Source: Somniosus microcephalus
Taxonomy: Eukaryota
DNA: 64,000 bases
Direction of reading: 5' to 3'
Assembly: GCA_052327205.1 (NCBI GenBank)
Contig: CM126207.1
Span: forward strand, 207,948,001-208,012,000
The translations under genes were made by a program, and so were the position numbers. A model generated the notes under the pieces. The model searched no databases. It was not told where the DNA came from and was given only the letters and a program-made list of their open reading frames with translations. Position 1 is the first letter of the stretch, and each line of letters begins with the position of its first letter. This document shows positions 5,728 to 34,035 of the stretch, piece after piece.

Positions 5728-5764
5728 ACGTATTCGGGACATCAACCCAGGGAAAACTGATTCT

Positions 5765-11656: not shown

Positions 11657-11750
11657 AGCTGGAATCCTCCTTGGTTAAGGTTGTGAATCCTAAAATGAAA
11701 GAGTCTGTGCAAAAGAATTCTCAACCCAAGACAAAATTGTCATCTGGCAG
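11657..11750 (+). CDS. CENPT: CENP-T coding exon 4 (ELESSLVKVV...)
   Basis: CAACAG acceptor, AG|GTATAT donor, phase 1->2; ESS motif continues the Ndc80 site. Confidence 0.85.
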
Positions 11751-12315
11751 GTATATAAATTAATTAACTATTCAAGAATACATAGAGTTAACTCCTGGCA
11801 TGGATTATTAGTAGAAGAAATCATACTGCCTCTTTAATGCTCCACTCTTCAAGGCACAGAATGATGATTTTAAAGGCATAGGCATCACTTAAGTGGTCTT
11901 CATTCATATGTGATCCTTGGCAGTGAGTGTTAGCAAGCTGTTTAACTGTGTGAAGCACCACAGGCAAGCCTGATCCTGCTTTCACCTCCCACCTACACGT
12001 ACACACTTCCAATAAGGGTCACTCTATAGGGATAAGGAAAAAAAACCCAGGGTAATTCTTTTACTTCCCTCAACTCGAAGCACTGAGGAGAATCATAGCC
12101 CTCTTAAAACCACCCTGGATGAGTACAGACTGAGGATCATGACTCCTTCTTGTTCTGGGCAGCTCATGAGGTGTTCCACTGTCAAATTGAGCCATTGAGG
12201 GTGCTTCAGACCAATTTCAATCAGAATTTTAAATGTCATTCTGCAGGAAGATTATACATGTGTGTACAGTAGGCTGTCAGAACATATTGCTTTAAATAAT
12301 TCCTGTTTTCTTCAG

Positions 12316-12458
12316 TAATGACAGCTTCGGTTTAAGTTTGCCAGCAGAAGATACCACAGAGCAGAATTTGCCCATAGACTATAACGTTCGGAAACGGAAG
12401 AAAATCAGTGTTTTAGAGTTTGAAAAAGCAACACAACAGAGACTCCAACGTGCAGCAG
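12316..12458 (+). CDS. CENPT: CENP-T coding exon 5 (…GLSLP…RKRKKISVLEFEKA…)
   Basis: Resembles human LELQLP…RRKQRLRLSVFQQG; phase 2->1. Confidence 0.88.
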
Positions 12459-12809
12459 GTATATGCGGACTTATCCCGATGTGATCAAATATTTGAGAAA
12501 TTGTTCGGACAAGGATTTTTTCTCTCGTGTCTGTTAAGATTCCGAGACACTGTTACTGATCTTCCAGTTTACAGTATACTCCTATTTCATAACTAACCAA
12601 AAAGCCGATGTAGGCTAAATGGTATTGTTCCCATAACTTGAATTATCAAATTTCTTTTGCCTTGAAAGCCTATGCCATTTCTCTAACATTTTAGCTAATG
12701 TAGACTGAAGTAGTTTTTGTTAAAGGTGAACTTTCTGGCTAGATGGACAACAAGTGCTATTTCCAAACTTCAATTACTCTGTCCCCTTAAAAAACAAACA
12801 AATGCAGAG

Positions 12810-12896
12810 CAACGTTTCCTTCAAGGGATCCTGCGCAGCTGGCTTTTCAATGTAAGAAGGGGCTGCACGGTGCCAAAAAAATTAGAGTGAACTTTG
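12810..12896. mobile_element. Short copy of the hAT-type MITE family
   Basis: CAACGTTTCCT ... TTAGAGTGAACTTTG ends resemble the copies at 17730 and 18239. Confidence 0.5.
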
Positions 12897-13854
12897 CTTG
12901 GCTAATCTACAACAATGAACATTGGTCTTTTTTCATCCAGCAATCCCTATGTCCATTTAGTTCGCCTTCTACCACCCTGGTGGTCACATGATGCAATGTT
13001 AATGGAGTTATTGACTAATAGCAATCAATCTCTATTAATTAGTCTACAACAGACCCAGACATGAGGTGAGGAAAACCCCAGTGGTGGAAAGCCTAGGGAA
13101 CCACCGGTCCAAAGTCACCAGTTCTGCCATTCCCCCCGCCTCCCCAGCATGCTACGTTTACCATATGCAATAATATATCAAATTACTCACACTATCTCAA
13201 AATATTATATTCTGAAATTTGAATAAATCAACACTATGTGCTTCCACCACCTCCCTTGGAAGCCTGTTCCATAGATTTACCACTCGCTCACTGAAATAAT
13301 GTTTCTGCAGGGTTGTTTTGAATTTGCCCCCTTCAAGCGCAGGTTGGGTTCTTTGGTTCTACTATTCTGGACAAGGTGAAATAGTCTGTTATCTAGTCCC
13401 TTTTTAGAATCTTAAAAACAACATCTTTCAACCTCTTTTCCAGTGAGAATATGCCTGTAATGGCTGATCATAATCAAATCCCTCCATCCCCGCAATCATT
13501 CTGGTTGCCCTCTTCTGTATCCTCTCAATAGCTGCAATATCCTTTTTGTACTGTGGCAACCAGAGCTGTACACTGTATTGTAAGTGCAGCAACAGTGCAG
13601 GATCATCTCCCTATTTTGGCTCAGTGTTGACCTTTTTAATACATCCCACACCTGATTTGCTTTACTCGCTGCTCAGTATTGTGATAGTCAGTCAGTCATT
13701 TTCCACGCACCTTAGTTTCTTTCCATTTAATTGATGACACTTCAGTGCTAAGTGGACCAGGTTTTTAAAGGTCATTCATTTCCCTCTTTGCATGTTGCTG
13801 TTAGTTAAAGATAGAGATTGATTTTTTCCTCGTTATGCAATTTTGTGATATTTA

Positions 13855-15560
13855 AAAGGCCAGTCAGTTTAACATCAGCGCTGGGTAAAGTTTTCGAAAC
13901 AATAATCAAGGAAAAACTTAACAGGCACTTGGAGAGGTTTAAGCTAATTAAGGAGAGCCAACACGGATTTGTAAAAGGCAAATCGTGTTTGACTAATCTA
14001 ATTGAATTTTTTGATGAAGTAACAGGAAGGATTGATGAAGGGAATGCAATGGATGTTTTCTACATGAATTTTAGGAAGGCGTTTGACAAAGTACCACATA
14101 GAAGGCTGGTTAACAAAATTGAGGCTCAAGGAATAGGTGGGTCAGTGGCAGCTTGGATAAGGAATTGGCTTAAGGACAGAAAACAGCGAGTTGTGGTAAA
14201 TGGCTGTTTTTCAGACTGGAGGATGGTAGACAGTGGTGTTCCCCAAGGGTCAGTGCTGGGGCCACTGCTTTTTTTTGATATATATAAATGACCTGGATAT
14301 TGGAATACAGGGTAGAATCTCTAAATTTGCCGATGACACCAAACTTGGGGATGTGGCAAACAGTGAGGATGGTACCAATCGATTGCAACAGGACATAGAA
14401 AGGCTAGCAGACTGGGCAGACAAGTGGCAGATGGAATTTAATACAGGAAACTTTTGATTTACCGGCACCTAAATAACCGGAAATCTCGGTTAACTGGATT
14501 CAGGAGTAGGTTTTACTTCATATTGTATTTGCCGCCTTCCATCTGTGCTGTGCAAGGGTGTGGCTGCAGCTGTTGCTAAGCTACAGAGACGCTTGAAACT
14601 TGTGGCCATTGTTCTACAGTTGTTGCTAAGCAATAGGGTTTGTTGCTTTATACGGAGCTGTCCGCTTTCCCTGTCTTTTACTATAGCATTCAGTTATCCG
14701 GAATTTTTGATAAACCGGCACCATGTCGGTCCCGTCCGTGCCTGATTTTAAAAAAAAGTTTCCTGTACAGAGAAGTGTGAGGTGATGCATTTTGGCAGAA
14801 GGAACAGGGAGAGGCAATATACACTTAATGGCACAGTTTTAAAGAGTGTGCCCGGACAGAGGGACCTGGGAGTTAATGTGCATAGGTCCCTGAAGGTGGC
14901 AGGACATATTGAGAGAGTGGTTAACAAAGCATATGGGGTCTTGGGCTCCATAAATAGAGGTATTGAGTACAAAAGTAGAGAAGTTATGCTGAACCTTTAT
15001 AAAGCACTGGTTAGGCCACAACTGGAGTATTGAGTCCAGTTCTGGTCACCACACTTTAGGAAGGATGTGAAGGCCCTTGAGAGGGCGCAGAGGAGATTTA
15101 CCAGAATGGTTCCAGGGATGGGGGATCTTGGCTACAAGGATAGGTTGGAAAAGCTGAATTTGTTTTCATTAGAGCAAAGGAGGTTGAGGGATGATTTGAT
15201 AGAGGTGTACAAGATAATGACAGGTTTGGATAGGCTAGATGGGGAAAGGCTGTTCCCACTAGGTGATGGTGCAAGGACTAGGGGACACAGATTTACAGTT
15301 TTGGGCAAGAGATACAGGGGGATGTGAGGAAAATCTTTTTTACACAGTGAGTGGTGAGAACCTTGAATTCGCTGTCGACGGAAGTGGTGGAAGCGGAAAC
15401 ACTCGATGTTTTCAAGGGGAGACTGGATAGGCACTTCAGGGAAATAAACTTGCAAGGCTACGGGGATAGAGCGGGGGAATGGGACTGACTGGATTGCTCT
15501 ACAGAGAGCCGGCACGGACTCGATGGGCCGAATGGCCTCCTTCTGTGCCGTTATGACTCA
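13855..15560 (+). mobile_element. 5'-truncated CR1 LINE (RT through 3' end) interrupted by a MITE
   Basis: RPVSLTS, QHGF, AFDKVPH, GVPQGSVLGP, KFADDTKL, LVRPQLEY; frameshifts and stops; CR1 tail GGGCCGAATGGCCTCC. Confidence 0.95.
14444..14765. mobile_element. Tc1/mariner (pogo/Tigger-like) MITE nested in CR1
   Basis: TIR CAGGAAACTTT...AAAGTTTCCTG flanked by TA/TA; removing it restores CR1 FNTEKCEV. Confidence 0.9.
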
Positions 15561-15739
15561 CCTTTCTGCACCTTTAGTAGTTAAAGTAACATCCTTCATG
15601 TTAGTAATGTGTCACATTCTTTACTGGGGGAGATGGCTGGTGGCATCAGCCTTTAAAATTCTCATCCTCTTGTTCAAATCCCTCCAAGGCCTCACCCCTC
15701 CCTATCTCTGACCTCCTCCAGCTCTGCAACCCTCTTAAT

Positions 15740-16056
15740 AAAGATAAACTGTTTTCAATGTCAGAAGGGTTGGTAACCAGAGGGCACAGATTTAAGGTAA
15801 TTGGCAAAAGGACCAGAGGTGAGATGAGGGGAAAAAAATACGCAGCGAGTTATGATCTGGAATGCACTGCCTGAAAAGGTGGTGGAAGCAGATTCAATAG
15901 TAACTTTCAAAAGGGAACTGGATAAACACTTGAATCGGAAAAAAATTGCAGGGCTATGGGGAACGAGCAGGGGGGTAGGACTAGTTGGATAGCTTTTTCA
16001 AAGAGCCGGCACAGGCACGATGGGGTGAATGGCCTCCTGTGCTGTATCATTCTATG
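15740..16056 (+). mobile_element. CR1 3' end fragment
   Basis: TRGHRFKV-like coding remnant and CR1 tail. Confidence 0.8.
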
Positions 16057-16847
16057 GAAGACCAAATTGGTAATTTGGGTTCTGAAGTCATAGTGGTGAA
16101 GGGGAAGTGCAGCAGTTTAACTGAGAAATGTAGCAAAGTTAATCTGATGGATACCAATGCCAGTCATCTAGGAAGAATAGTTAAAAATGTTGATTTTAGT
16201 GGAAAGTTAATCCCTTTCTATATCTGTTTAAGCAACTGATTTTCGCAATCTTTTAAATCAACAATCCTCAACTTCCACAACAGCTAAGATTAGATCAGTA
16301 TAAGCATGTTTCAACAATGTAACAAGGGTGATGAATGTAGAAATAGTATCTAAGAATGTATTTCAGTGATGTGAATAGAGCTTCCCCAATGCCTCAGCAG
16401 GTTTCTCCAGTGAGTAACTGAGCCACACAGGCTACGAAGATACCAGCTTCCAACCCTGTTGCTGAATTACCTGATATTAACCAACATAGCAGTGGCCCTG
16501 GACTAGGGAGGAGAAAAATAGGCCAGTTTTCCCACTCGTGATCATTATCTGGTGGAAGTGCGTTTGCGTGGATGTATAGTGAGGACATGTTCAGAATTAG
16601 CTATGCTGACCCCTTCTCGCAGTTGAATAGCTCTGATTCCCCTCCTTTGGTGATTTGAATAGCCTATGTATATTCACTTTTGAGGCTCACGTGTAAATAA
16701 TGGTCACTTGTGTAAGGTCCCAAAGGGAAACTGGCTTGTAACTGTACTTCAGCAAGGCAACACTGCCTTCAGGAGAATGAGAAAAAATTGTGAATGGAAA
16801 TAGTCAAGTCGTGTTTTATGTGCTAAAATGTCTGTTTTGATTCCTAG

Positions 16848-16920
16848 AACCTCAAGAAAGTGAACAAGTGGAACTAAACGAAAAGAGCACAAGACTTCCA
16901 GATGTCTCAACAATAGTTGG
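16848..16920 (+). CDS. CENPT: CENP-T coding exon 6, duplicated-module exon A copy 1 (EPQESEQ…DVSTIVG)
   Basis: 73 nt, phase 1->2, donor GG|GTAATA. Confidence 0.85.
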
Positions 16921-17729
16921 GTAATAACCATGCAATCAGATGAAATGAATACTGATTTTACTTAATAGTACTAGAAGCTATTTTAAGGGATTTTGCTGCA
17001 TTTACCATATAAATGTTGAAAAGTTATCTGCAAAGGAGTCTTGCATTGACTTAGGAATTCCATCATTCTAAGGCTTGTGACTCACATTTTGGGAATGACT
17101 GGGGAAATGAATAGAATATATCAGTTTAAAAAAAAAAAAAAAAAAAAAATCCAATGAACAGGTGGAAAAGGAGTAAAACCTCTTGCATTGGTGTTGCTGT
17201 ACCCACTTTCTGACCCATAATACCATGTTCGTGTAATTACATTTTTCTGCTGGGTGTTGTGGCACCATCCAGTCTTGATGTAGGAGCAAATTCTGGAACT
17301 GAGCCTTAAAATGTGTTGTGTTACAGCGGACCCAATTATTGAATTAACAGTTTTTAACCTAGCTTCCAACATACCTACAGCCCCATTTGGTTTCATTATT
17401 TTAGTTAATTATTGCAGGCTAACTCATGTCAGAAATGTGGCTCATGATTGGATGGTTTCAAAGACTTGGGACTTGAAAGCTAAATTAAATGTAAACTTTG
17501 TATTGTTTTTAATTCTCGGGATGTGGTTTGGCTGGATTTATTGTCCAGCTCTAGTTGTCCTGAGGTGGTGGTTAGGTTTGATACAACTGGGTGCCTTGCT
17601 AGGCCACTTCAGAGGGCAGGTTAGACTGGAATCACATACAAACCAGATCAGGTAAGGATAGCATGTGTCTTTCTCCAAAAGACGATAGTGAACCAGTTGG
17701 GTTTTAACGACAATCCGACAACTTCATGG

Positions 17730-17894
17730 CAACATTCGCTCTAAGCTGCGCGGCCACTCTGCTGTCTGCCGGTCCTGCGCAGCCCGGAACCGGCTTTTCC
17801 AATGTGAAATTTTGCGCATGTGCAAAACTTTGAGTAGGCTGCACAGCCCGTTAAAGGGACCGCGTACCCAAATTTAAAATTAGGAGGAACATTG
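17730..17894. mobile_element. hAT-type MITE with 8-bp TSD
   Basis: Ends CAACATTC...GAACATTG; perfect TSD CTTCATGG (17722-17729 and 17895-17902). Confidence 0.85.
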
Positions 17895-18238
17895 CTTCAT
17901 GGTCACTTTTACTGATACCAGCTTTTTATTTCCAGATTTTTAAAACTGCATTCAAATTCTTAAACTGCCATGGTGGGATTTGAACTGACCGTCTCTGGAT
18001 TATTAGCCCAGCAACATAAGCACTACACTACTGTACCCTGTTTTAGTTTGATAGAATGTGCACTGTGTTGGATAAATGTGCTGAGAATATAATTAGATAA
18101 TGAGTAAATTCTAGAATGATGCTTGGAGCAGCTAGCTCTCGAGTGAAAATTTTCAGTTGTGTTGTTTCACCAGTTGAGTTTACTAGTACACTGAGCAATA
18201 AAATATTTACTGTGGAAGACTGGAATTATAGTTGTAGT

Positions 18239-18391
18239 CAACGTTCCCGCTAAGCCGCGCAGTGGTCTGGACATCCCGCGCAGGCCACTCACCAGTTTTT
18301 AAATGGAAGAAACAGCGCATGCGCGGAAATTTGAATGGGCCGCGCAGCCAGTTAAAGGGACCACACGAAAAAAAAATGACAGGGAGCATTG
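18239..18391. mobile_element. hAT-type MITE, same family
   Basis: CAACGTTCCC...GGGAGCATTG; diverged 8-bp TSD GTTGTAGT/GCTGTAAT; shared GCGCATGCGC…TTAAAGGGACC core. Confidence 0.75.
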
Positions 18392-19440
18392 GCTGTAATC
18401 CCCTTTATACACGCTTGTGAGAAGAGGGAAATGGCTTGAATGGTGTCACAGACACTTATTAAGGAAACTCCCGAAGAATAAATGCTTCTCATTTCTAAAT
18501 TGTGTTTAACCAGTTCAAAAATCAAGATGGTATGTAAAATATTACTATATATACGAACTTCAGAAGCAAAAGTATATGTAAATGTACCAGCAAATTGGCA
18601 AGCATTTATAAATATAGCTGTAGAGGTGGGGGAAGCTAGGACGGATAGGAATTTGTGGCTTTGGGTAAAAGGAATTTGGCTGAAGTAGAGTTCCATACCA
18701 AATGTAGTTGGCTTAAAGTTAATTGTTATTTTAGATTTTGAGTCCATTCTAATCCTTTAGTATAGCAGGACAGCAGAAGCTAGTGGTGTGGGGAATTTGC
18801 TTAACATGGAAGTTTCTGTAAACCCTGAGTGTATGGGATATTCACTGGAGAAAGTGTCTGCAGTTGGACGTATTCAATCTTAAAGTTACTGAATTTGAGA
18901 GAGAGTTAGAGAAACTGCACTATGACAAGAATGGTTCCTGGCATATTACAGGAGGTTGTCACTCCTCAGCTAGAGAAGGATAGTAAAGCAGGGAAGTGGG
19001 TAGCCATCTGCTGGGGGGCGATGGGGAAGGAGGAATTGGGTAGTGCAGGAGATTCTTGGGGGTCTGAAGCTGTCTGATAGGCATATGGTGCTGGCTACCT
19101 ATGACACAGACAAAGACATGACATGAAAGGAAAATCACAAGCAATACTAGCACCATGGAGAAAGTGATTTTGGTTTGGAGGAGGGGAAAAAGTGATAGTG
19201 TTGAGAAAAGGCAGATGTAGTTATTTTACTGCTGGAGGGCCAGGTAGCCTTTACTGCAGCTGCATCAGGAAGACTTGAATGGTGAAATGCTTCCCAGGTG
19301 TCAGGGTGAGGGATGCAAGCAGCTGGAGGAGATTCTGTAAAGGAGTGTGAGCAGCCTAAAGTCGTGGTTTTTATTACGAACAATAACAGACAGGAAAAGA
19401 CCCTCTGGTCCATTCAGCCTATCTCTCACAATTGTGATAC

Positions 19441-19993
19441 TGTGGCAGTACCACTGGTTGTCCCTTACATTGAGACACATAATTCCCTTTAACTTACCTT
19501 TCGGGGCCGTTGCCCTTTTAACTTACCTGTTGGGGCCATTGCCCCTTTAAGGCGCGCCCTAGCGCGCTGACGTCACGTCACGTACAACGTGATGTGCGTG
19601 CGCCGGCATAGCCCGGCCTAGCATCTTCGGCCTCAACGGCCAGCCGACAGGAGCGGCGCAATCTTCCGCTCCCGCGGCAAGCACCGGCACAGCCCGGCCT
19701 CCCGACTTCGGCCTCAACGGCCAACGACGCGCATCACGTGACGCCCTAAGCGCGGGAAACGCGAGCAACGTGATGACGTCACAACACAAACGCGATGATG
19801 TCATCACGCTCCCCACAGGACTGCGAACTCAGTCCTTGTGGAGTCCCCGCTGGGACAAGACCTACACCACGGTGCTCCTACAGTCAGCCATCTTACCTGA
19901 TGTAATTAGCCTGTTCCTGTAAATAAACAACCTATTTATAGTTCGTCGAAGTCAAACTCTCTTATTTAGTGGCGATCTACACGAACCGCTACA
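19441..19993 (+). mobile_element. CpG-rich solo LTR (553 bp)
   Basis: TG...CA ends (TGTGGCAG / CCGCTACA); 4-bp TSD ATAC on both sides; AATAAA at about 19922; internal direct repeats. Confidence 0.85.
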
Positions 19994-20139
19994 ATACCTT
20001 GTATATCACAATATATCCACTCTTCACCCCACCTAAAAACCATGTGATATTGAAATAATTGTATTGGCGAAGAGTAGAATAGAGTTCTTGCGGGGGAGTT
20101 TGAGCAGTTGGGCGTTATATACAAAAGTAGGATCATAAG

Positions 20140-21060
20140 GGTAGTAATCTAGTACCACGGCTTAGGCCAGTTAGCAAGAAGCAGATGAGATGCATCAATA
20201 CATGGCATGGCAAATGGTGTAGAAGGGAGGATTTCAGGTTTCTAGGGAAATGGGATAGGTTCTGTGGAAGGACAAGATCTACCGACTGGATACCTTCTTG
20301 TAAACCAAACGGGTACCAGTCCTCTCCCAGAGAGGATGAATAGGGCAGTGGGGGAGGATTTAAATAAGTAAAATGGGCAGAGAGGTTGGGGTTAGTATAA
20401 GTGAAGTTGAAAAGCAATTTAGAACAATAAGCTTGAGGTTGGATACAAAGAGACATATTAGATATGAACAATGTTGAGAAGGATATTGAAAGAAAGAATA
20501 AGAAAAGAGTATTTCCCTCCTTTTTACTGAGGTGTGTGAAGGGCCAGGGTTGCAGTCCTTGTATGCAAATGTACAGAGTATTAGAAATAAAGTAAACTTA
20601 GCTGGGAGCTAAATATTTCCACCTAATTTTTAGAAGCAGTAAAGATGGAAAAAGGGGAAGAAGGGTGGTCTTTTTAAGAACACAGTTATAGCCTGAAAAA
20701 GGAAGGTTTTAACTGATGATGCTCCGATGGAATTTATTTGAGTTGATTAGGAAATAAAAAAGGGATCTGTTACCACATTGGGAGTGGGGGGAAAATGAGG
20801 ATGAGATTTGTAAGCAATTTAGAGAGGTTTGCAGTGGCAACATAGTTTTAATTATTCTGTGGTTGGGGTGCTTTGTGAACTAAGGTAGATTAGGATAGGA
20901 CAAAAGTTTGTGATAGAAATGGGGATGGATTCTTAGAATGCAGCCAAGATGTTTCCTAGTCAGTATGTTGCATGTCCTGCAAAGCAGGATGCATTACGTC
21001 TGGTCATGGTTAACGAAACAAGACAAGTAAGCGGCCTGAATGTGGGAAGAGAAAATGGCA
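20140..21060 (+). mobile_element. Highly decayed CR1 fragment spanning the ORF1 end and ORF2 start
   Basis: WCRREGFRFLGxWDRF-like remnant and LYANxQSIRNK-like remnant. Confidence 0.6.
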
Positions 21061-21671
21061 TACGAGACTGCAGATCAACAATGGGATATTTTTAAAAAGG
21101 ACATTGCAAAGTTGCAGAGTAAATGTATACTTTTTTTTAAAGAAACCTACTTTAAGTTACAGAATGTCATGGATAAATAAAGATGATAGAAACAAGTTAA
21201 AATTAAAGAGGGCATGTGGGGCCTGCAAGTATAAAATGATTTAAAAAAGAGATGGAAAATAGGAAAAAAGATTGAGAGCGACAAGGAAAGCAAGGAGGCA
21301 GTATGAGGAGAGAATCTCAAAGTATTAAAAACAGTAAAGCCTTGGGGAACAGGAGAGGAACATCCCAGTGTTTTCCTGAAATGACCATAGTTTTGTTTCT
21401 GTGTTTTTGCCAAGGAGATTGCATGGTTAGAGGGCGGGTCAGTGTTGTACATGGTAGCACTGTGACTGGGGTGGTATTAATGGTCCTGATGTCCTTTTCA
21501 TACGTTCTGGCAGCTTTTCTCAGCTGAGTACAGCATACATTGGACAGCGCATTTGGAGAAGTGTATGGCCCAGACTGTAACATATACCTAACTGAAGGTG
21601 GAAACGTGGTAGTAGTATTTCAAACAGAGAACGACTATAAAGTAATCCATATGGTTGTATATTTGTTGCAG

Positions 21672-21799
21672 TTTAATTAATTCTGACTTTGAAGAGTCCA
21701 AAACAAAACCAATTCTTTGCAGAAGACCTGTAAACCGCAGAGTCATAAATGAGGATGACTTTGAAGAGGGAGTGCACAACTTTCTGGAACAAGAGAAAG
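21672..21799 (+). CDS. CENPT: CENP-T coding exon 7, duplicated-module exon B copy 1 (…SKTKPILCRRPVNRRVINEDDFEEGV…)
   Basis: 128 nt, phase 2->1; aligns to human SVQRPGLARRPPARRAVDVGAF. Confidence 0.9.
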
Positions 21800-22305
21800 G
21801 TATAAACTTAAATTTTTCTTGGGCTTTATATAGTTTTTTGACCACTATCACTTTACAGCTGCTTTAAAGCATGAATGGCCTGTAGTGGCTTGCCACCCAG
21901 TTTTGGTTTTACTTCTCCACATTTAAGGGATGAATAGTTGTCAATATCCATTGTACCTTGCAACATGTTAATTGGAAAGGCATACAGTTTAACGTGAGCA
22001 ATGCACAGCTTTCTGTTTTACATGTGTGTAAAATATAGATATGTGAATATAGTCTCTAATTATAAACTATATAACAACAACAAATATTTGGTATTAGTGT
22101 TGGGTTTAAATTTGCTTTAATCACAGATCAAATTTAGAAAATTGGGAAAAGCTGCGCGGGCTATCTTTGGAAATGGCTGGTTTCTACATTGAGTATGGGG
22201 CTGAGAATTGTGTTGCTTCTGCGCACACATTCTGCTTTACTTTGCAGTGCATTTAGTGGTGATCTGTTAGGCCCTTAAATAACATGTTAATTCTTCTCAT
22301 TATAT

Positions 22306-24133
22306 TCTGCAGTCCTGCCACATCCAGTCGTGAGTGGTGGTGGACAATTAAACAGTTAACAGGAGGAGGAGGCTCCAAAAATATCCCCATCCTCAATGAT
22401 GGTGGAGCCCAGCACGTAAGTGCAAAAGACAAGGCTGAAGCATTTGCAACTATATTCAGCCAGAAGTGCCGAGTGGCTGATCCATCTCGGCCTCCTCCTG
22501 AGGTCCCCAGCATCACAGATGCCAGTCTTCAGCCCATTCAATTCACTCCACGTGATGTCAAGAAACGGCTGAAGACACTGGATACTGCAAAGGCTATGGG
22601 CCCTGACAACATTCCGTCAATAGTACTGAAGACTTGTGCTCCAGAACTAGCTGCGCCCCTAGCCAAGCTGTTCCAGTACAGCTACAACACTGGCATCTAC
22701 CCGGCAATGTGGAAAATTGCCCAAGTATGTCCTGTCTACAAAAAGCAGGACAAATCCGACCCGGCCAATTACCGTCCCATCAGTCTACTCTCAATCATCA
22801 GCAAAGTGATGGAAGGTGTCGTCGACAGTGCTATCAAGCGGCACTTACTCAGCAATAACCTGCTAACTGACGCCCAGTTTGGGTTCCGCCAGGGCCATTC
22901 AGCTCCTGACCTCATTACAGCCTTGGTCCAAACTTGGACAAAAGAGCTGAACTCGTGAGGTGAGAGTGACTGCCCTTGACATCAAGGCAGCATTTGATCG
23001 AGTGTGGCATCAAGGAGCCCTAGCAAAACTGAAGTCAATGGGAATCAAGGGGGAAAACTCTCCATTGGTTGGAATCATACCTAGCATAAAGGAAGTTGGC
23101 TGTGGTTGTTGGAGGTCATTCATCTCAATCACATGACATCACTGCAGGAGTTCCTCAGGGCAGTGTCCTAGGCCCAACCATCTTCAGCTGTTTCATCAAT
23201 GACCTTCCCTTCATCATAAGATCAGAAGTGGGGATGTTCGCTGATGATTGCACACTGTTCAGCACCATTCGAGACTCGTCAGATACTGACGCAGTCCGTG
23301 TCCATATGCAGCAAGACCTGGACAACATTCAGACTTAGGCTGACAAGTGGCAAGTAACATTCGCACCACACAAGTGCCAGGCAATGACCATCTCCAACAA
23401 GCGAGACTCTAACCATCTCCCCATGACATTCAATGGCATTACCATTGCTGAATCCCCCACTATCAACATCCTGGGGGTTACCATTGATCAGAAACTGAAC
23501 TGGACCAGCCATATAAATACTGTGGCTACAAGAGCAGGCCAGAGGCTGGGAATTCTGCGGCGAGTGTCTCACCTCCTGACTCCCCAAAGCCTTTCCACCA
23601 TCTACAAGGCACAAGTCAGGAGTGTGATGGAATACTCTCCACTTGCCTGGATGAGTGCAGCTCCAACAACACTCCAGAAGCTCGACACCATTCAGGATAA
23701 AGCAGCTCGCTTGACTGGCACTCCATCCACCACCTTCAACATTCACTCCTGGCGCACTGTGGCTGCAGTGTGTACCATCTGCAAGATGCACTGCAGCAAC
23801 TCGCCAAAGCTCCTTCAACAGCACCTTCCAAACCCGTGACCTCTACCACTTAGAAGGACAAGGGCAGCAGACGCATGGGAACATCACCACCTACAAGTTC
23901 CCCTCCAAGCCACACACCATCCTGACTTGGACCTGTATCGCCGTTCCTTCACTGTCGCTGGGCCAAAATCCTGGAACTCCCTTCCTAACAGCATTGTGGG
24001 TGTACCTACACCATATGGACTGCAGCGGTTCAAGAAGGCGGCTCACCACCATCTTCTCGAGGGCAATTAGGGATGGGCACAAAATGCAGGCCTAGCCAGC
24101 GACGCCCACATCCCATCAATGAATTAAAAAAAA
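22306..24133 (+). mobile_element. 5'-truncated CR1-group (L2/Crack-like) LINE
   Basis: NYRPISLLS, QFGFR, AFDRVWH, GVPQGSVLGP, MFADD, YKAQVRSVMEY; A-rich tail; few disablements. Confidence 0.92.
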
Positions 24134-24474
24134 CATTTGGCTTGACCCAATTAAAATTTTGCATGGCGTACTTGGAAACGTTTTATCAATATATAAGAAC
24201 AGCAGCAGGCTATTAAACTCCTCTAGATTGTTCCGCCATTCAATTAAAGAATGGCTGATCTATATCTTAACTGCAGCTACTTACCTTGGTTCCATAACCT
24301 TTAATACTCTTACTTGACAAAAATATGTTGAAAATGTTTGAGAGCTCACCCAGTGGCTTATTTGGTGACAGTACCACTTGGTGCAGAACTGAGCCTTTCA
24401 ATCAGAAAGATCACAGGGTCAATGTCTGGTCTGTGCCGAGTTAGTTAATTTTAACTGAGGTAAAGGTAAGGGCA

Positions 24475-25138
24475 ACAGAAAATGCTGGAAATACTCGGCA
24501 GGCCAGGCAGCATCTGTGGAAACAGAGTTAACGTTTCAGGTCTGGGACCCTTCATCAGAACTGGAAAAAGCTGGAGATGTAACAGATATTAAGCAGATGC
24601 AGAGAAAGGGGGAGAGGTGGGGGGTTAGGAGGGGAGGAAGGAATTGAAAGAATATACTGTGCTTATGTAAGAGGCAGGAAAGATAAAATGTTGCAAATGG
24701 GAATGGCAAAATCATACAGCATGAAAAATGGGAGCAGGGATTATTGTCTGAAATTGTTGAACTCAATGTTAAGTCTGGAAGGCTGTAAAGTGCCTAATCG
24801 AAAGATGAGGTGCTGTTCCTCGAGCTTACGTTGAGCTTCATTGGAACAATGTAATAGGCCGAGGACAGAGAGATCAGAGTGGGAGTGAAGCGGAGAATTA
24901 AAGTGACAGGCGACTGGAAGCTCAGGGTCACCTTTACGGACTGAACGGAGGTGTTCCGCAAAGCGGTCGCCCAATCTGCGTTTGGTCTCCCCAATGTAGA
25001 GGAGACCACATCGTGAGCAGCGAATACAGTATATTAAATTGCGAGAAGTACAAGTAAATCGCTGTTTCACCTGGAAGGGGTGTTTGGGGCCCTGGACAGT
25101 GGGAAGGGAGGAGGTAAAAGGGCAGGTGTTGCATCTCC
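24475..25138 (-). mobile_element. Penelope-like element 3' end (GIY-YIG endonuclease plus pseudo-LTR)
   Basis: NLIYCIRC..CGLLYIGETKRRLGDRFAEH...GTLQPSRLN, followed by a typical Penelope terminal segment. Confidence 0.93.
24526..24562 (-). ncRNA. Minimal type I hammerhead ribozyme of the Penelope element
   Basis: - strand reads AGTT CTGATGA A GGGTC CCA GACCT GAAA CGTT AACT: core CUGAUGA/GAAA, stem II GGGUC/GACCU, palindromic ACGU stem III, stem I AGUU/AACU. Confidence 0.75.
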
Positions 25139-25719
25139 TGGCTTCAGCATCTTTCGGCCAGTGAGTGGGAAGTCAGCCAGTGCTCTTGGCTCAGTATATA
25201 GTGACCTGCTAGAAGGAGCATGTTGACAGATGGGGTTCAGATGTGATCTCCTTGTGGTGAAATAACCTGCTTACATTCATGAAGAATGGATGAGATGCCA
25301 GAAGTCAGTTATTGACCCTGTTATCACTCGTAATCCATATGCATGTATTTCGAGATTGGGGTCACTGGATGATGGTGAGCAGGAGCTCTGTTTATTTTTC
25401 CTTTCCTAGCGCAGAGATATTGACGCTTATTATCGTTTCCCCAAAGCTGTCCTGGCTACAATCATTCAGCTTAGCACGGACCAGGCATCGATCATAGGTT
25501 TTTCCTGATTTGTGCTGTTCAACGCTACTTAAAATTACATTTGCCCAAAGAAGGTCCACCATATGGCAGGTTTGAAATATATCTGGCAAGTTCAATCCTA
25601 ATTACTGAAATGAACGGTATCTATATGCACTTGGGGAACAGAAATGGTCGATGCGCATCACATTGGTATCTAAATATGTTGAATTGTTTCTCTGCTAAAG
25701 TGCTTGTTTTTTTTTAAAG

Positions 25720-25792
25720 AACCTGAAGAAATTGAAAGATCTGGACAGTTTGAAAAGACTGCAGGACTGACTGACATTTCAGGAATAGTTGG
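25720..25792 (+). CDS. CENPT: CENP-T coding exon 8, duplicated-module exon A copy 2 (EPEEIER…DISGIVG)
   Basis: 73 nt, phase 1->2, same GG|GTAATA donor as exon 6. Confidence 0.85.
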
Positions 25793-27344
25793 GTAATAAA
25801 TGATAGACAAGTAATAATCAGAGCTGTTGATTTTAATGATTTGAATAAGTCAAATTCAATTTTATTGCATGGTTTATGATATTTATTGATGATTTGGAGA
25901 TTAGATGCCATGATTGTATTCATTTTTCTGTGTAAACCATAAATAAGTGGCATTGTTAATTCATAAATGCAAAGATAGCTTGATATCAGTAAATGTTGCC
26001 ATTTATGGAATTCTCTGACTTTCATTGTATTTGACATGGTGCACTGGTCCTGTTTGTCGACCAAGTATTACAGAACATTTGTAATCAATCATCTTCAAGT
26101 CTATTAATCCCATGTCAGCAACTCCAAATTTCCTTTATTTTTGGGGGGAGGGGGCATTTAACCTCATGGGGTAAATGCCAGTGTTGCACTGATACTGTGC
26201 TGAGTTGAATTGTAATTTTCTTGTGTGGATCTGATTGCAGATAATTAGCACTTTTTTAGCTCTACGTGGCTGAGCTAAGAGCAAGAAATTTAGGCATCAT
26301 TCTCTAACCTCTCTCTGCACTGCCCTCAATTTTCTTTCCCTTTTTCCTCTTCTGAAAGCAGTGATTCGTGCAGGGATACAGTTGCTCACCAAAGTGACCA
26401 TCCTTCATGTCTAAGCCTAGATAGTGAGTGTTTGAAGTTATTTGATAATGGGGGCATCTCCGCTGAGCCCAATCCTGCCCTCATTCAATGTGCGCAAATG
26501 TATACTAATCACTGTATAAAAATCAGTAGCGGGAACTCTGTCAGATTTTACCCTTCTTAACCCAGTTGCCTTTTCATCAACCCATGGGGGTGAGACAGTA
26601 AAGAAAACCCCAAGCCGAGACTCATTTCTGAAGCTGTGGGGTTCCCAAATAATTCAGTTGATAAATACACTTCCCATTGTGGAACTAAGCCATACACACC
26701 AGAAAAGTGCATGATTCAACTCCTGGTCTATACCAAGGTAATGACAATAGGAGTGTTGCAATGAATCTCGGTGCTTTTGGACCAGAAAAAGAAGAAAATC
26801 AGTTGAGAGTTCCTGCACCTGCTTGCTATTCACTGCTGGCAAGTGCCTGCATGTGGATGACTGGCGAGGACAGGGTCAGGCTCAGCTATGCCATCTCAGA
26901 TATGAGAGCAAGTTACAGATTGATTTGTTCGACCGCTCCTCAGTGGGAGAAGAAGTCATGATGCAATTGAGTACACCCTATTTTGATGCAGTTCATTGGC
27001 TCCAGAATGAGGTAAATTGGGTTTTTGTGGGAACTTTCTAGGCCTGTTCTGCACCATACAATTGAGAGCCCAGTGTCCAGGCAACTTATAGTTTTGAGCA
27101 CTAATTACTGTAATGCTTTCATGGATTTTTGATCATTTTAAATTATTAGTCCCATCTGAGGAGTTGTGGGAAGATCATTTAGTCCTGTGGATTTGTGCAG
27201 GCTGATGCAGAGCCTAGCCTAAACTTAGTGGAAAGAAGAAGATAGGTTGTTAAAACAGAAGACCACGTAGAAAGTCACCTGCTCTGAACCCCATATAAAT
27301 CGTGACCACTGTTTATATGGTTTTAAAATGCTGCTATTTTGTTT

Positions 27345-27845
27345 GCATAGAATGTACAGAACAGAAACAGGCTATTCGGCCCAACTGGTCTGTGCCGATG
27401 TTTATGCTCCACATGAGCCTCCTCCCACCCCTCTTATCTAACCCCATCAGCATAACCACCTATTCCTTTCTCTCTCTCCTGTGTTTATCTAGCTTCCCCT
27501 TAAATGCATCTATGCTATTTGCCTTAACTTACTCGTGGTAGCGAGTTCCACATTCTTAGGGGTAAAGTAGAATCTCCTGAATTTCCTATTGGATTTAGTG
27601 ACTATCTTATATTTATGGCCCCTAGTTTTGGTCTCCGCCACAAGTGGAAACATCTTCTCTATGTCTACCTTCTCAAACCCCTTCATAATTTTAAAGACCT
27701 CTATCAGGTCACCCCGCAACCTTCTCTTTTCAAGAGAAAAGAGCCCCAGCCTATTCAGCCTTGCCTGATAGGTAGATCCTTTCAGTTCTGGTATCATCAT
27801 TGTGAATCTTTTTTGCTGCTTCTCCAGTGCCTCTACATCCTTTTT
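27345..27845 (-). mobile_element. CR1 3' fragment
   Basis: LGLFSLEKRRLRGDLIEVFKIMKG…TRGH. Confidence 0.85.
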
Positions 27846-28145
27846 TATAATCTGATTTAATCATGATATTTTAATGTAGAAAATATCGGGTATGCTGGAA
27901 TATTAATAGTCTATAGCCTGATGGCTCTGGCAGTGAGTATTGCTCTTGCAACCTTCTAAAGTTCAAGTTGGTCAATTTTGCTGGTTTGCAACTGGTCCTC
28001 CAGGTGATGCGCTCTGGATTTCAGCTAAGGTGAGAAGAGCTGGTGAGACCTGCCCAGTCTCACGGAAATGTATTTCTAGACAGAACATCAAAGGCCATAT
28101 ATGGCACCTGTGGAGAATGTATTAATAGTATTCTGTCTGTTGCAG

Positions 28146-28273
28146 ATCAATTAATTTTGATACTGAAGAGTCTCTGTCAAAACCAGTTCTGAGCAGAAGA
28201 CCGAGAAGAGACAAACTCATCAGTGAAGATGATTTTGAAGAAGGAGTACTTTTCTACTTGCAACAAACAAAAG
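28146..28273 (+). CDS. CENPT: CENP-T coding exon 9, duplicated-module exon B copy 2 (…SLSKPVLSRRPRRDKLISEDDFEEGV…)
   Basis: 128 nt, phase 2->1, GTTGCAG acceptor as in exon 7. Confidence 0.88.
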
Positions 28274-29369
28274 GTGTAGTAAATGTTTTATTAAAGCTTT
28301 TTCCTCCTGCTTTTAAGTTTTATCGGGGCTCTGCAATTCCCTTGTCTTAAATGTATGCATAGGTGGCCTGGTTCTTCAGGGTCAACTGCTGCTCTTGTAA
28401 CCGTATGCCAGAAGGTAAGTGACAGCTGCCTGGGGTGGCTCACCTTGTTTTCTTTTTCCACCTCTCTTTGGTAAAGTGGGTCACTTCTGCTCAGTATATC
28501 CTCCAACTACCTATTCAAGTTTGGGAACTTGAGTCCTGCAACTGCATGGCATGTTACTTTGATAAGTACTAGGTGTCCCAGCAAATTAAAAGTTGTGTGA
28601 AATGTTGCTGAATACAATTTAATGTGAACAAGTACAATGGTGTGTAAAATGCAGAATATAATCACCATTTCTAAATGTCTACTGTATTAACTATTAGTGC
28701 ACTAAAGAAGCATATCCCACAGTGATAGAATATGGATCTGTGGCTCAATGCTCCATGGAAATAAAGCAAAACTATATTGATGACGTGCATGTGTGCAGCT
28801 GGCACACTGAGGTTGGATAATCCCTTGAGGAGGCCTTGTGCCTACTGTGTGCTGTGATTGTGCTGTCTGTGTTTTTACAGCCAGGCTGAGGTGTCATCAC
28901 AGGATGCTTGCATTGATGGTGTGCAAAGTTCCCGTAGGGTTTGATTATGAGGCTTCCCTACCGTACATTTTGCATGGTTTGTCCAGAAATGCAATGTGAT
29001 CATTGAAGGACAGGATATTGCACATTTTTAAACTTGCTTCCTGGCCTTTGAGAGTGAGTTTCTTAAAGATGTTTAGCTGGTTTGTGAGTGAGTATGGGCT
29101 AGCAGAGTACTACTTTTGGCTTTTCGGATTGCTTTTGTTCTTAGTTTGCTGCATTTTTCTACATTATTTACTTAATTTTTATATTTTAGTTTCTTTGCCT
29201 GCCATTTGAAGGGAGTTTTAATCTCATTTTAAGCAACTTTCACTGGTACCCAAGGAGATGGGTGTAGAGACTCCAGTAGAGTTACTTGGACATCTCCAAG
29301 TAGATCTGCCTTCCATGCCTACACTTCACCAGGGAGATGGTCTCTACTGCAGACATCCTGCAGGATTAG

Positions 29370-29992
29370 AATGGCTCTGCCTGTGGCAATGAAAGTCATG
29401 ACTGCCTCAAACTCCTATGCTATTGGCTTCTTTCAAACTGCCTCGGCCAATATCTGTCACTTCAGCCAGTCTGTGGTGAAATGCCGCATACATGAGGTGA
29501 ATGATATCTTGTTTACTAGGGCTAATGGGTTTATCACTTTTCCATGGAAAGGTCTCTACTTTTTCAGAGTAGACGGGCTCTCGAGTGCAAGGTCTTATCG
29601 ATGGAACCCATGAGACCAGTTGGGCTCCTTTCACCAATGTTACGGATTTTATAAATAGGACAGGATTCCACTAAATTAACATACAGCTTGTGACCATCAC
29701 ACCACATTGTAAAGGTGGATGCCAGGTAACCTGGAAACTGCCATGACACACTTATCCTTTAGCAGTTAACAGTTCCATAGTTATTTCATGGTCTATCTAG
29801 ACAAAACTGATGGATCCTGAAGGAGCAGGAATAGTCTTTTGATACATGATACCAATATAAAATCTATGAAATACAGCTGAAGGAAAATATAATGAGGCGT
29901 ATGCCACCACAAGAATACAAATAGCACATACCACAAGCATGCTGAAGGCAAGATTCTGCTGTTTGAATAGATCTGGGGGTGTCCTGTTGTAC
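29370..29992 (+). pseudogene. Fossil PIF/Harbinger (HARBI1-like) DDE transposase
   Basis: Across frames: ALPVAMKV..SYAIGFFQ, VQGLIDGTH, FINRTGFH*INIQLV, DAR*PGNCHD, YNEAYATTR, LKARFCCLNRSGG; stops and frameshifts. Confidence 0.85.
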
Positions 29993-31094
29993 AATGTTGC
30001 AGTTACGCTCTCAGAAGAAAAGTCACCATGGAGTAGGTGGAAGATGCATGTCAGGCAGGCCTGAAGAAGACAGTGAGTCTGGGGATGAAGAATTGCAACT
30101 GCAGCAAGGAAGATAAATGGCAGTGTTTAATGGACAACAATTTGAATTTAAAAAAATCAAAGCCAGCCCAGCACCGTGTACATGTTACTAATAAACCAGC
30201 CCACCAAACCACATGCCCACCATTATCCTCTACTTAACATTAGTTACCATGCTTATCCATTCATTATTTGTAAATGTTTTTTCCCCCTCTTGTGACTGTA
30301 TGGTGGGTGTTTCCTGCTACCTAACCTAGTGCCACTTTTAGATGCTACCTAACCTAGTGCTACTTTTAGATGCTACCTTAGTGGGAGAAGAAAGTGAGGT
30401 GGCTTCCCGATAAATGTCTGAGTAGCTCCTGGAATGGAGGTGGCTCTTTACTCTTTGTGCTGGGTTTTAAGATGCTGATGCTGTGGTAGCTGCCTAAGTC
30501 TGTCCTCTTTATGGCTCAGCATGAACCATTTGAGTGGAGTAGCTAGTTGGTACGGTTGTTACATTGAACTGAGAGACAGCAGTCTCATCTGTGCCTACTC
30601 CTGCGTGTCCCTACTAGTGGGCACGCTCTCTGCATAATCTGTGATCTGCTTGGGAGCAGATTGCAGGTCTGCAATCATGCTTTTGAAGCCCTGCATCAGG
30701 GTACTTTCCAGATGATTCCCAGCATGGTGAATCCAGACAGGACAGTCATGGGCATTGGAGTCCAAAGTCTCTAACATCAAGTTGGAACATTCCCAAGAGA
30801 GTCCTGAGCTGCGATTTAGACCTCTGCTAAGCACGGGAGTGGGGTGTGGTGGGAGTGCTGCACTGCAGATGACCCTGAAGGTTTCATGCACTACACGTGA
30901 AACAGCACTGCACAAATGTGCTTGGTGAACTCCTTCATACTATTGGATCTTGCAGGGTGTTTTGCACATTCAGATGACTCTATGAATTGATGGTGCTCAG
31001 AAAACAGCATTCTTTTGTATACAGGACTTAAATTGCACCAATCCTGGAACTCAGCAGCTGAAGGTGGCCTTGAGTTAGTCCTCAGGCCAACTTG

Positions 31095-31747
31095 TTAGAA
31101 TCATAGAATATTACAGCAGTGAGGGAAGCCATTCAGCCCATCGAGTCTGCAGCAGCTCCTTCGAAGAGCAATCCAGTTAATCCCACTTCCTGGCTCTCCC
31201 CCAGATCCCTGCAATTTTTTCTCCTTTGAGTATTTATCCAGCTCCCTTTTGAAAGCTACTATTGACATTGAATCTGTTTCCACCACCCTATAAGAACATA
31301 AGAAATAGGAGCAGGAGTAGGCCATTTGAGCGCACTCTGCTATTCAATAAGATCATAGCTGATCTTCTACCTCAACTCCACCTTCCCGCACTATCCCCAT
31401 ATCCCTTGGTTCCCTTAGTATCCAAAAATCTATCAATCTCTGTCTTGAATATACTCAACAACTGAGCATCCACAGCCCTCTGGGACAGAGAATTCCAAAG
31501 ATTCACAACCCTTGAGTGAAGAAATTTCTCCTCATCTCCAGTCATAAATAACTGACCCCTTATTCTGAGATTATGCCCACTAGTTCTAGACTCTCCGGCC
31601 AGGGGAAACAACCTTTCAGCATCTACCTTGTCAATCCCCCTCAGATTCTTGTATCTTTCAATGAGATCACCTCTCATTCTTCTAAACTCCAGAGAGTATA
31701 GGCCCAATCTACTCGATCTCTCCTCATAGGACAACACTCTCATCCCT
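31095..31747 (-). mobile_element. Two adjacent CR1 3' fragments
   Basis: LGLYSLEFRRMRGDLIE…VVNLWNSL; two CR1 tails at about 31100 and 31295. Confidence 0.85.
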
Positions 31748-31749
31748 GA

Positions 31750-31930
31750 AAAACGCAGATAGGTTAATATTTCAGGTAGAGACCCTTTATTAGAACTTGA
31801 TCAGAATTCTGTTCAAAATTGATCACCTGAAATGTTGAGCTGTCTTTTTTTCTTTTCAGATGCTGATGGACCTGCTGTGTATTTTTATTATTTTTGTTTC
31901 TATTCCAGATTTCCAGCATTTGTACTTTTT
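31750..31930. mobile_element. Degenerate Penelope terminal segments in inverted arrangement
   Basis: Similar to 24480-24565 in both orientations (GTTAATATTTCAGGT..GACCC; CCTGAAATGTTGA..CAGATGCTG..ATTTCCAGCATT). Confidence 0.55.
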
Positions 31931-32175
31931 CTTTATATCTCAGAAATCATCTGAAGCTGATTGGTCTTGTGTAATAGTTCAGTATGCAATTTATATTCTC
32001 CATCTCAATCTACTTGGAAAGACATCAAATTAGAGATCAGAACTATACATTACAATATTTACAAATTATGACCAATGAAGCATAAGAAAGTTAGCAATTT
32101 GTCTCGTATAGAGCTAAAAATCATAAATGTTTGTGTTTGCAGAACTAGCAATAGTCCTGCAGCTGCAGAATTTAC

Positions 32176-33449
32176 ATAGATACATAGATACATAGAAGAT
32201 AGGAGCAGGAGTAGGCCATTCGGCCCTTCGTGCCTGCTCCGCCATTTAATGAGATCATGGCTGATCCTTTAATTCAGTATCCCGTCCCCGCCTTCTCTCC
32301 GTAACCCTTAACCCCTTTTGCCCGTAGAAATATATCTAATTCCCTCTTAAATATATTTAATGAGCTGGCGTACACTGCCCTCTGTGGCAATGAGTTCCAC
32401 AGGTTCACCACTCTCTGAGTGAAGAAATTCCCCCTCATCTCTGTCCTAAATGGTTTAGCCCTTATCCTTAAATTATGTCCTCTAGTTCTGTTTTCACCCG
32501 CCAAGGGAAACATTCCTTCTGCATCCAGTCTGTCTAGACCTGTCAGAATTTTATACACTTCTATGAGGTCCCCTCTCAATCTTCTAAACTCCAGTGTGTA
32601 CATCCCTAAACTACATAGTCTCTCCTCATAGGTCATTCCCGCCATTCCTGGTATCAGCCTGGTGAATCGCCGCTGCACCCCCTCCATGGCAAGAACATCC
32701 TTCCTCAGATGAGGCGACCAAAACTGTACACAGTACTCGAGGTGTGGTCTCACCAGTGCCCTGTACAGCTGCAGCAAGGTATCCCTGTTCCTGTATTCTA
32801 ACCCTTTTGCTATGAAGGCCAGCATACCGTTTGCCTTCTTGACCGCCTGTTGCACCTGCATGCTCGCCTTCAGTGACTGGTGTACAAGAACACCCAGGTC
32901 TCTCTGTACTTCCCCCTCTCCCAATCTATTGCCATTTAAATAATAATTTGCCCTCCCGTTCCTGCACCCAAGGTGGATAACTTCGCACTTGTCCACATTA
33001 TAGTGCATCTGCCATTTATCCGCCCAATCGCCCAGTCTGTCCAAATCGCTCTGGAGCTTCCTGGTCTCTTCCTCTGAGCCCACCCCACCTCCTAGTTTAG
33101 TGTCGTCTGCAAATTTGGAAATGCTGCATCCGACTCCCTGATCCAGGTCATTAATGTAAATTGTGAACAGCTGGGGGCCCAGGACAGATCCCTGTGGTAC
33201 CCCACTTGTTACTGCCTGCCATTCAGAAAATGAGCCGTTTATTCCAACTCTCTGTTTTCTATCTGACAGCCAGTTCCCTATCCACGCCAAAACTTTCCCC
33301 TTTATCCCATGAGCCTCAATTTTCCATGCTAATCTTTTATGTGGGACCTTATCGAAGGCCTTTTGGAAGTCCAGGTACACCACATCTACTGGCTCTCCCC
33401 CATCTATTCTACCAGTTACTCCCTCAAAAAATTCCAATAGATTAGTCAA
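32176..33449 (-). mobile_element. Young 5'-truncated CR1 LINE with an uninterrupted 391-codon RT/C-terminal frame
   Basis: YLDFQKAFDKVPH, GVPQGSVLGP, KFADDTKL, LVRPHLEY; (TCTATGTA)n tail. Confidence 0.95.
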
Positions 33450-34035
33450 TTGTGGAAACCTTGGCTGATTGCTTCAATCTTCCTTGGCTAAAAAGAATAC
33501 AATTATAGCAGCCCTACTGCCACTGTTCTAAGATCACCTAACAGACCAGGATTTGAATCTGGAACCTTCTGGTCTGTATGATTCAGCTACACACTGCCCT
33601 TTCCAAATGAGCCATCAGGAATGCTGACCAATTGCACTCTTAAATTGATTAAAAGTTTTGCAAAAGAGGAGCCTGGGTTGACTTCTATTTTTTCTTTCCA
33701 CTCTATGGAAAATTGCTTTGATCGTGTCTTGATCTTGCCTAGGATTGACCAGTGGCAGTATTACTGAGCCCAAGAACTCACCGTGGTGAAAATTTTGCCA
33801 TGAGTTAACAATTTACCATTGGATTGCTGCACCATGTACCCAGATAATGATTACACATTAGCTTCTGTTAGTGATGACAATTTCTGATAAACATAATAAG
33901 CCTGGCTATAATTTAGTTTTAAATACATTTTGACCAACAAAGTGGAATCTATATTGTTTTTCTTTAACTTATTTAGTTAGTAGAATACCTTAAAAACAAT
34001 AAGGTAATGAGACAACATTTTCTTTCATAATCTAG

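Follow-up and report, generated by a model that had tools for sequence, protein, structure and literature searches.

Two tandem copies of an exon cassette homologous to the Mis12 complex-binding segment in the CENP-T gene of Somniosus microcephalus

Kinetochore models based on human and chicken proteins assume one Mis12 complex (Mis12C) per CENP-T, and the load of the Ndc80 complex (Ndc80C) and of the whole KMN unit (Knl1 complex, Mis12C and Ndc80C) is an active question (PMC5241120, PMC8844409). A single Mis12C site on CENP-T is also what a review describes (PMC9252888). A 64,000-nt stretch of the Somniosus microcephalus genome (GCA_052327205.1, contig CM126207.1, forward-strand positions 207,948,001 to 208,012,000; hereafter the window) raises the question of whether this number is fixed. 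Its CENP-T gene contains, twice in tandem, a two-exon cassette that matches the Mis12C-recruiting segment of human CENP-T. Does each copy dock a Mis12C of its own? We propose that the two cassettes arose by a single duplication in the cartilaginous-fish ancestor, that both copies are spliced and conserved, and that, by analogy with human and chicken CENP-T, each would dock its own Mis12C in mitosis. We give this proposal about an even chance of being right.

The duplicated cassette and its homology

The CENP-T coding gene lies at 7918..43325 on the + strand. Its 16 exons, located by tblastn with named shark CENP-T proteins and checked for phase and stops, encode 803 amino acids (aa) plus the stop codon, with GT-AG introns throughout and no internal stop. 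A profile of cartilaginous-fish CENP-T matched the human CENP-T chain 7qoo_T (E 1.4e-46) and the chicken CENP-T chain as well. Together with the histone fold and the Thr-Pro-Arg (TPR) motif, these matches bear out the gene identity given in an earlier note on this DNA, and the gene is an intact shark CENP-T orthologue. A protein search with exon B2 (see below) returned 12 proteins among 16 candidates, sharks only, most of them with a CENP-T name or PF15511. By exon identity the closest relatives are sawshark, sevengill and horn shark.

Cassette 1 consists of exon A1 (16848..16920, +, 73 nt, phase 1 to 2), the linker half, and exon B1 (21672..21799, +, 128 nt, phase 2 to 1), which carries copy 1 of the Mis12C site. 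Cassette 2 repeats this arrangement with exon A2 (25720..25792, +, 73 nt, phase 1 to 2) and exon B2 (28146..28273, +, 128 nt, phase 2 to 1), the latter carrying copy 2. All four exons have AG..GT edges, and their places, lengths and phases are those read by the earlier note. Between the cassettes 136 of 201 nt are identical. Of the 66 whole codons 35 encode the same residue, and counting the Glu at the exon junction brings the figure to 36/67 aa, so our recount agrees with the number first claimed; the best of 100,000 shuffles reached 15/66 (mean 4.9). The copies are 67 aa apart, with about 35-40 residues from one helix to the next Ser. When B2 was searched against the whole genome, B2 and B1 alone matched, both in the CENP-T gene. 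The claim that the surrounding introns share no similarity held in part. No blastn match was found between the A1-B1 and A2-B2 introns or between the introns upstream of the A exons. A residual likeness persists beside the splice sites (26/50 upstream of the A exons and 23/50 downstream), and the introns downstream of the B exons gave one blastn match (68 nt, 71%) in a stretch thick with repeat reads.

Homology to the Mis12C-binding segment was examined with a profile made from 17 single-copy bony-vertebrate sites only; human numbering is taken from chain 7qoo_T. Both copies were detected in 18/18 cartilaginous-fish proteins, above all 950 shuffles (best 8.9 bits), which confirms the homology first suggested from the letters of the window. 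Copy 1 scored 31-47 bits in 17 sharks and rays and 14 bits in the chimaera, and copy 2 scored 17-28 bits. A shark profile aligned copy 1 to human 195-215. The motif S-x-x-K-P-x-L-x-R-R-P is found in both copies, as had been noted. Each window copy has S201, K204, the Arg-Arg (RR) pair, F222 and V226, together with N195, E199 and E219. In B1 (+) the S201 equivalent is encoded at 21697-21699, RR at 21721-21726, Glu at 219 at 21751-21753, the F222 equivalent at 21760-21762 and the V226 equivalent at 21772-21774; the B2 counterparts (+) are 28171-28173, 28195-28200, 28225-28227, 28234-28236 and 28246-28248. The phospho-acceptor with a basic residue at +3 reads S-x-x-K in both. In 15 species the RR position of copy 1 is RR in 13, RK in one and RS in one, and that of copy 2 is RR in 11, RK or KR in three and shifted by one residue in one; F222 is kept in 30/30 units and residue 226 is hydrophobic in 30/30. 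The earlier statement that T195-P was replaced by acidic residues is right about the loss of T-P. The position itself is Asn in both copies, and the acidic residues lie downstream (197-200).

The human Mis12C segment spans about residues 184-230 and includes T195, S201, R209/R210 and V219/F222/L226, with a CENP-T:Mis12C:Ndc80C ratio of 1:1:3 (PMC5241120, PMC11189301). Phosphorylated S201 is required and sufficient in vitro, and T195 is needed in cells only (PMC5241120). Chicken R192/R193 and I202/F205/V209 correspond to human R209/R210 and V219/F222/L226 (PMC11612794, PMC11189301). The shark segment is homologous to the human one, follows the Ndc80C motif and an upstream unit, R0, described below, and keeps the Ser with its +3 basic residue, the RR pair and the Phe of a predicted helix. 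As in the chicken 161-216 segment (T184; KMN-N arrangement), each shark copy has the RR pair of binding region 1 and two of the three residues of region 2 (F222 and V226), and there is one direct Ndc80C motif (PMC11612794, PMC8844409). Chicken CENP-T differs in having a single Mis12C region, and its I202 is replaced by Glu219 in the shark.

An iterated profile detected R0 as a weaker third unit upstream of the cassettes in sharks, lizards and frogs, and in several teleosts too. In the window (11657..12458, +) it is formed by an exon at 11657-11750 (phase 1 to 2) and exon U at 12316-12458 (phase 2 to 1), with a basic cluster and a predicted Phe helix. Its donor lies 12 codons past the Phe, matching B1 and B2, and its phasing is likewise 1 to 2 to 1. 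R0 aligns to human residues of about 130-170 and in most species has no RR pair at the Mis12C-site position. By eye, an Erpetoichthys protein (P0050, residues of about 140-260) apparently has two R0-like segments ahead of a single Mis12C-type unit.

A weak AlphaFold2 model (mean confidence score, pLDDT, of 39.5) predicts a short helix at the Phe of each unit, R0 included, with a pLDDT of 54-65 for the helix of the Mis12C-site copies. A two-cassette fragment from a relative, modelled as a complex with head fragments of Mis12 and Pmf1 (two of each), scored 0.04 and 0.09, below the mark of 0.34; the prediction, run without alignments, Nsl1, Dsn1 or controls, is no evidence either way. Neither single-exon searches of Pfam and PDB nor the ESM Atlas yielded a meaningful or usable match.

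Age, conservation and transcripts

Both copies are present in sharks, rays, skates and the chimaera Callorhinchus. The 19 cartilaginous-fish species retrieved contribute 43 database entries, of which 40 contain both; two of the others are fragments and the third is a sawfish model truncated at its N terminus. By species the count is 18 of 19, the remaining model being truncated. Their spacing is 66-70 aa in 40/40 entries. A tree of 76 units, built on 53 columns and with many forks open, places all 30 cartilaginous-fish units in one clade (support 100/99). Copy 2, including that of the chimaera, is a clade (98/97), and so is elasmobranch copy 1 (85/90); the placement of chimaera copy 1 is not settled by the tree. 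The stem of copy 2 is longer than that of copy 1 (0.33 vs 0.18). R0 units mostly cluster away from the Mis12C-site units; those of lizard and sardine lie outside this cluster. Since both copies occur across the cartilaginous fishes sampled, including the chimaera, the sequences fit a single stem duplication before the chimaera-elasmobranch split. This split took place about 400 million years ago.

Conservation was expressed as the mean identity of each of 18 species to the window sequence. The B exons reach 78% (B1) and 81% (B2) and the A exons 69% (A1) and 78% (A2), compared with 57% for U, 59% for D and 40% for E. The histone-fold exons (41964..43325, +), which match relatives bearing PF15511, stand at 76-89%, truncated models included. 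D (34036-34449) and E (37656-37802) belong, with F (39137-39535), to the acidic linker exons downstream of the cassettes (34036..39535, +), each of phase 1 to 1. The figure for E is lowered by ray and Chiloscyllium/Hemiscyllium models in which this exon has no match. Comparison of the two copies, a paralog comparison within a single genome, gave a ratio of nonsynonymous to synonymous divergence (dN/dS) of about 0.35 for B and 0.47 for A, with dS of about 0.9. The description of the cassettes as an old duplication kept by selection is supported by all three results: the chimaera shares both copies, the B exons are more conserved than the linker exons and dN/dS is well below 1.

Inclusion of A2 and B2 in RNA, a check named by the earlier note, was found in relatives, where assembled contigs from four organisms contain both copies in spliced form. 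In run X19, taken to be RNA by guess and intron-free, one 1,642-nt record contains U, B1 and B2, with gaps of exactly 73 nt at the places of A1 and A2, and B2 starts 73 nt after B1. In runs X17, X21 and X22, from three more organisms, one contig each spans B1 from edge to edge (depths 9.6, 157 and 203). All three join the A1 end to B1 and then the A2 start, and they extend past B1 by more than 430 nt on the upstream side and 250 nt on the downstream side.

One or two docks

The cassette is duplicated in the window, the duplication is older than the chimaera split, transcripts of relatives include both copies, and both retain S201, the RR pair, F222 and a hydrophobic residue 226. Phosphorylation, binding and stoichiometry at the shark copies can be sketched by analogy. 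By the human and chicken route, the Ser of each S-x-x-K motif would be a CDK1 target. The RR pair would meet the acidic patch of Nsl1 after Aurora B lifts the basic motif of Dsn1, and the Phe/Val helix would rest on the Mis12-Pmf1 head. The linker of about 35-40 residues between docks plausibly leaves room for two complexes. Shark CENP-T has a single TPR motif (17/18 proteins), as in chicken, and human CENP-T has two; the exon with this sole TPR Ndc80C-binding motif, the equivalent of human T85, lies at 10922..11039 (+). The first Ndc80C-type motif, in the first coding exon (7918..8015, +), reads T-M-R without the T-P of a cyclin-dependent kinase site. It is T-M/V/L-R in 17/18 cartilaginous-fish proteins, the 18th having an N-terminal extension that puts it outside the scanned stretch. 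Because of the single TPR motif, the load per CENP-T would be two KMN units and a single directly bound Ndc80C, making three Ndc80C as in human and two Knl1 complexes (Knl1C) instead of one. The partner side agrees with Mis12C docking: human CENP-T binding depends on Y8, F12 and F13 of Mis12 (PMC5241120), and these residues are retained in the Mis12 of the same genome (one match found, a single 224-aa open reading frame at L001 1477-2151, -), which we count in favor of the proposal. A PF15622 search for the Mis12C-binding end of CENP-C gave one weak match only (E 2.2).

Several observations weigh against the proposal that each copy docks a Mis12C. Unlike the human segment, the shark copies lack T195-P, which occurs in 0/81 cartilaginous-fish units vs 77/79 bony-vertebrate site units of a first set (many of these are from salmonids and not independent). 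The Pro at -2 of the PxSVxR signature is also absent, with Glu there in both copies. The hydrophobic residue at 219 is Glu or Lys in 81/81 cartilaginous-fish units (Glu in both window copies), and the chicken IFV-RRR mutant, in which three residues including the V219 equivalent were changed together, lost Mis12C in a Head1-binding test (PMC11612794). Glu219 is also found in 15/80 single-copy units of a wider set, often in single-copy teleosts, so Glu219 alone is no mark of a dead site. Shallow raw RNA labelled as the same species gave two reads on the B1 stretch and none across junctions. In the wider search described below one copy prevails in lungfish, caecilian, sturgeon and most teleosts and amniotes (84/90 proteins with a strong unit).

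The other points of this kind concern copy 2 and lead to the alternative that copy 1 alone is the Mis12C site and that copy 2 took another job (binding of another partner, or an import or phospho-regulatory motif). Besides its longer stem, copy 2 has a profile score below that of copy 1 in 17/18 proteins, meaning that it is less like the ancestral type. It also has a conserved aromatic tail of its own, and the +3 basic residue is gone from it in four of the five rays and skates shown. R0 provides a precedent for a copy with changed function: chicken CENP-T deleted for 161-200 or 201-216 loses Mis12C despite an intact upstream region (PMC8844409). R0 is conserved yet unable to replace the chicken Mis12C site, so a kept copy need not bind Mis12C. 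By this analogy R0 would be an ancient duplicate that is no longer a Mis12C dock, and the precedent is the chief reason for doubting copy 2. Unlike R0, however, copy 2 has S/T201, RR, F222 and V226 in register, and its 53-aa unit is identical letter for letter across four shark genera. We regard a changed function of copy 2 as unlikely.

On a second alternative, of equally low probability in our view, both copies are able to bind, one Mis12C at a time. The duplicate would then raise the effective affinity of a weak site or offer two differently regulated entry points, with stoichiometry unchanged. A human peptide of residues 192-215 binds weakly (Kd of about 30 uM, PMC5241120). The losses of T195-P and V219 are common to both copies and thus preceded the duplication, and the spacing is tightly kept. 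On the other side, duplicates in salamander, lizard and trout retain T-P and a hydrophobic residue 219, whereas Glu219 is frequent among single-copy teleosts; duplication and weakening of the site thus do not go together. The linker of 35-40 residues also does not seem obviously too short for two occupants. One related idea, Glu219 as a compensation tied to duplication, looked attractive in a first set (81/81 and 6/6 multi-copy units vs 1/79 others) and was rejected with the 15/80 single-copy units carrying Glu and the salamander, lizard and trout duplicates that keep the hydrophobic residue.

The duplicate might instead serve regulated splicing. The frame symmetry of the cassette, including the A1 to B2 splice, was correctly described in the earlier note: the reading frame survives each of the three single-cassette skips as well as the double skip. 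Trout annotations show one- and two-copy models side by side, with near-identical copies. The idea of isoforms with zero, one or two sites, drawn from this symmetry, finds no support here. No cassette skipping was seen in the contigs of the four relatives, where X17, X21 and X22 have one contig each over B1, nor in the 40 cartilaginous-fish entries that cover the region, ten Amblyraja isoforms (X1-X10) among them; contigs drop rare variants and the isoform count covers retrieved clusters only, so rare skip forms would escape both tests. Skipping elsewhere in the gene is annotated, one isoform each of Heptranchias and Amblyraja (P0007, P0019) lacking exon D. With D skipped in two species and E without a match in some models, it is tether length and not dock number that appears to vary by splicing. 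A splicing role for the duplicate is accordingly improbable. Weakest is a neutral or length-only spacer, which we consider very improbable: symmetric exon pairs duplicate easily and repeatedly (truncated in pipefish, near-identical in lizard and trout), sharks evolve slowly and dS between the copies is merely about 0.9, but B2 is much more conserved than the adjoining linker exons and dN/dS is well below 1.

Surroundings, recurrence and significance

CENP-T stands head-to-head (divergent) with a single-ORF gene (one open reading frame) for a THAP-domain protein, THAP11-like (1124-315, -; Pfam THAP E 4e-14); CENPT and THAP11 are neighbors in the human genome too. Between the two Ndc80C-type motifs, the exon at 9287-9410 (+) encodes a conserved S/T-P-x-x-x-L-R motif that is predicted helical (H54-75) and recurs in the CENP-T of coelacanth, frog and teleosts. 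This exon has a tandem NAGNAG acceptor (9286/9289), which would explain one-residue isoform pairs in relatives. A GC-rich 33-nt minisatellite array (5397-5752) lies upstream of the first coding exon, and the first coding intron has a weak tRNA-like Rfam match (8237-8304, +, 36 bits), perhaps the head of a short interspersed element. CENP-T introns contain retroelement remains at 22263-25172 and 32277-33473 (reverse-transcriptase ORF fragments and a GIY-YIG-type fragment), and an element with a zinc knuckle and reverse transcriptase lies at the window end (61831-63734). These retroelement remains attract heavy RNA read depth.

A profile search of 1.84 billion representatives yielded 124 new proteins among the best 150. 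A strong unit, defined by a 20-bit cut, was present in 90 of these (one copy in 84, two in five and three in one); the 34 without a unit at this cut include many fragments. The multi-copy proteins come from axolotl, Iberian newt, wall lizard, spiny eel, pipefish (truncated units) and coelacanth. Axolotl and newt copies pair by position (35-36/48 identical between species vs 30-31 within), which indicates that the salamander duplication is also old. The three coelacanth copies form their own clade (99/90) and are present in the old and the new assembly. The coelacanth proteins P0025 and P0228 have three Mis12C-type units and no separate R0, with T-P in the first unit only; the second exon of R0 may have been lost there by unequal crossing-over of same-phase cassettes. 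Cutthroat and rainbow trout have near-identical pairs (70/73 aa), annotated as one- and two-copy forms. Such closely matching pairs may be recent duplicates or artifacts of assembly; the trout pair is present in two species. A simple link of duplication to very large genomes finds no support, as lungfish has one copy. These sequences point to independent duplications of the cassette in salamanders, coelacanth, a lizard and several teleosts.

We found no published report of a multi-copy Mis12C site on CENP-T; most subscription papers lay outside the search, and figures or supplements (e.g., Fig. S4A of PMC11612794) could show repeats. The duplicated sequence is already present in public protein models, without comment. 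The number of docking motifs on CENP-T is known to vary among vertebrates, with two TPR Ndc80C motifs in primates and one in chicken (PMC8844409). That variation is point gain or loss of a phospho-motif, whereas in the shark whole exons of the other docking module are duplicated. The nearest engineered counterpart is chicken CENP-T 2x(1-90), also a tandem doubled docking module, which raised kinetochore Ndc80C (PMC8844409). In that artificial construct the direct Ndc80C site is doubled; in the shark the doubling is natural, affects the Mis12C site and would double Knl1C too.

More broadly, the number of Mis12C docks may be an evolvable dial in vertebrates, an idea that we hold tentatively and with slightly less than even confidence. 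The phase-symmetric cassette would have undergone six or more independent duplications (cartilaginous fishes, coelacanth with three copies, salamanders, lizard, spiny eel and trout; truncated in pipefish). Old duplicates would give two or three complete KMN units, so that each centromere unit would gain in microtubule-binding valency and in Knl1-based checkpoint capacity, and R0 would be the trace of an older round with changed function. If each shark copy docks a Mis12C, the likely outcome is one linker with two microtubule-binding and checkpoint units instead of one. A natural two-dock CENP-T of this kind, older than the shark-chimaera split and re-invented in axolotl and newt, both of them animals kept in laboratories, would offer ready alleles for testing what extra KMN units do to attachment strength, checkpoint signalling and dependence on the CENP-C pathway, and the DT40 CENP-C(delta73) system is suited to such tests.

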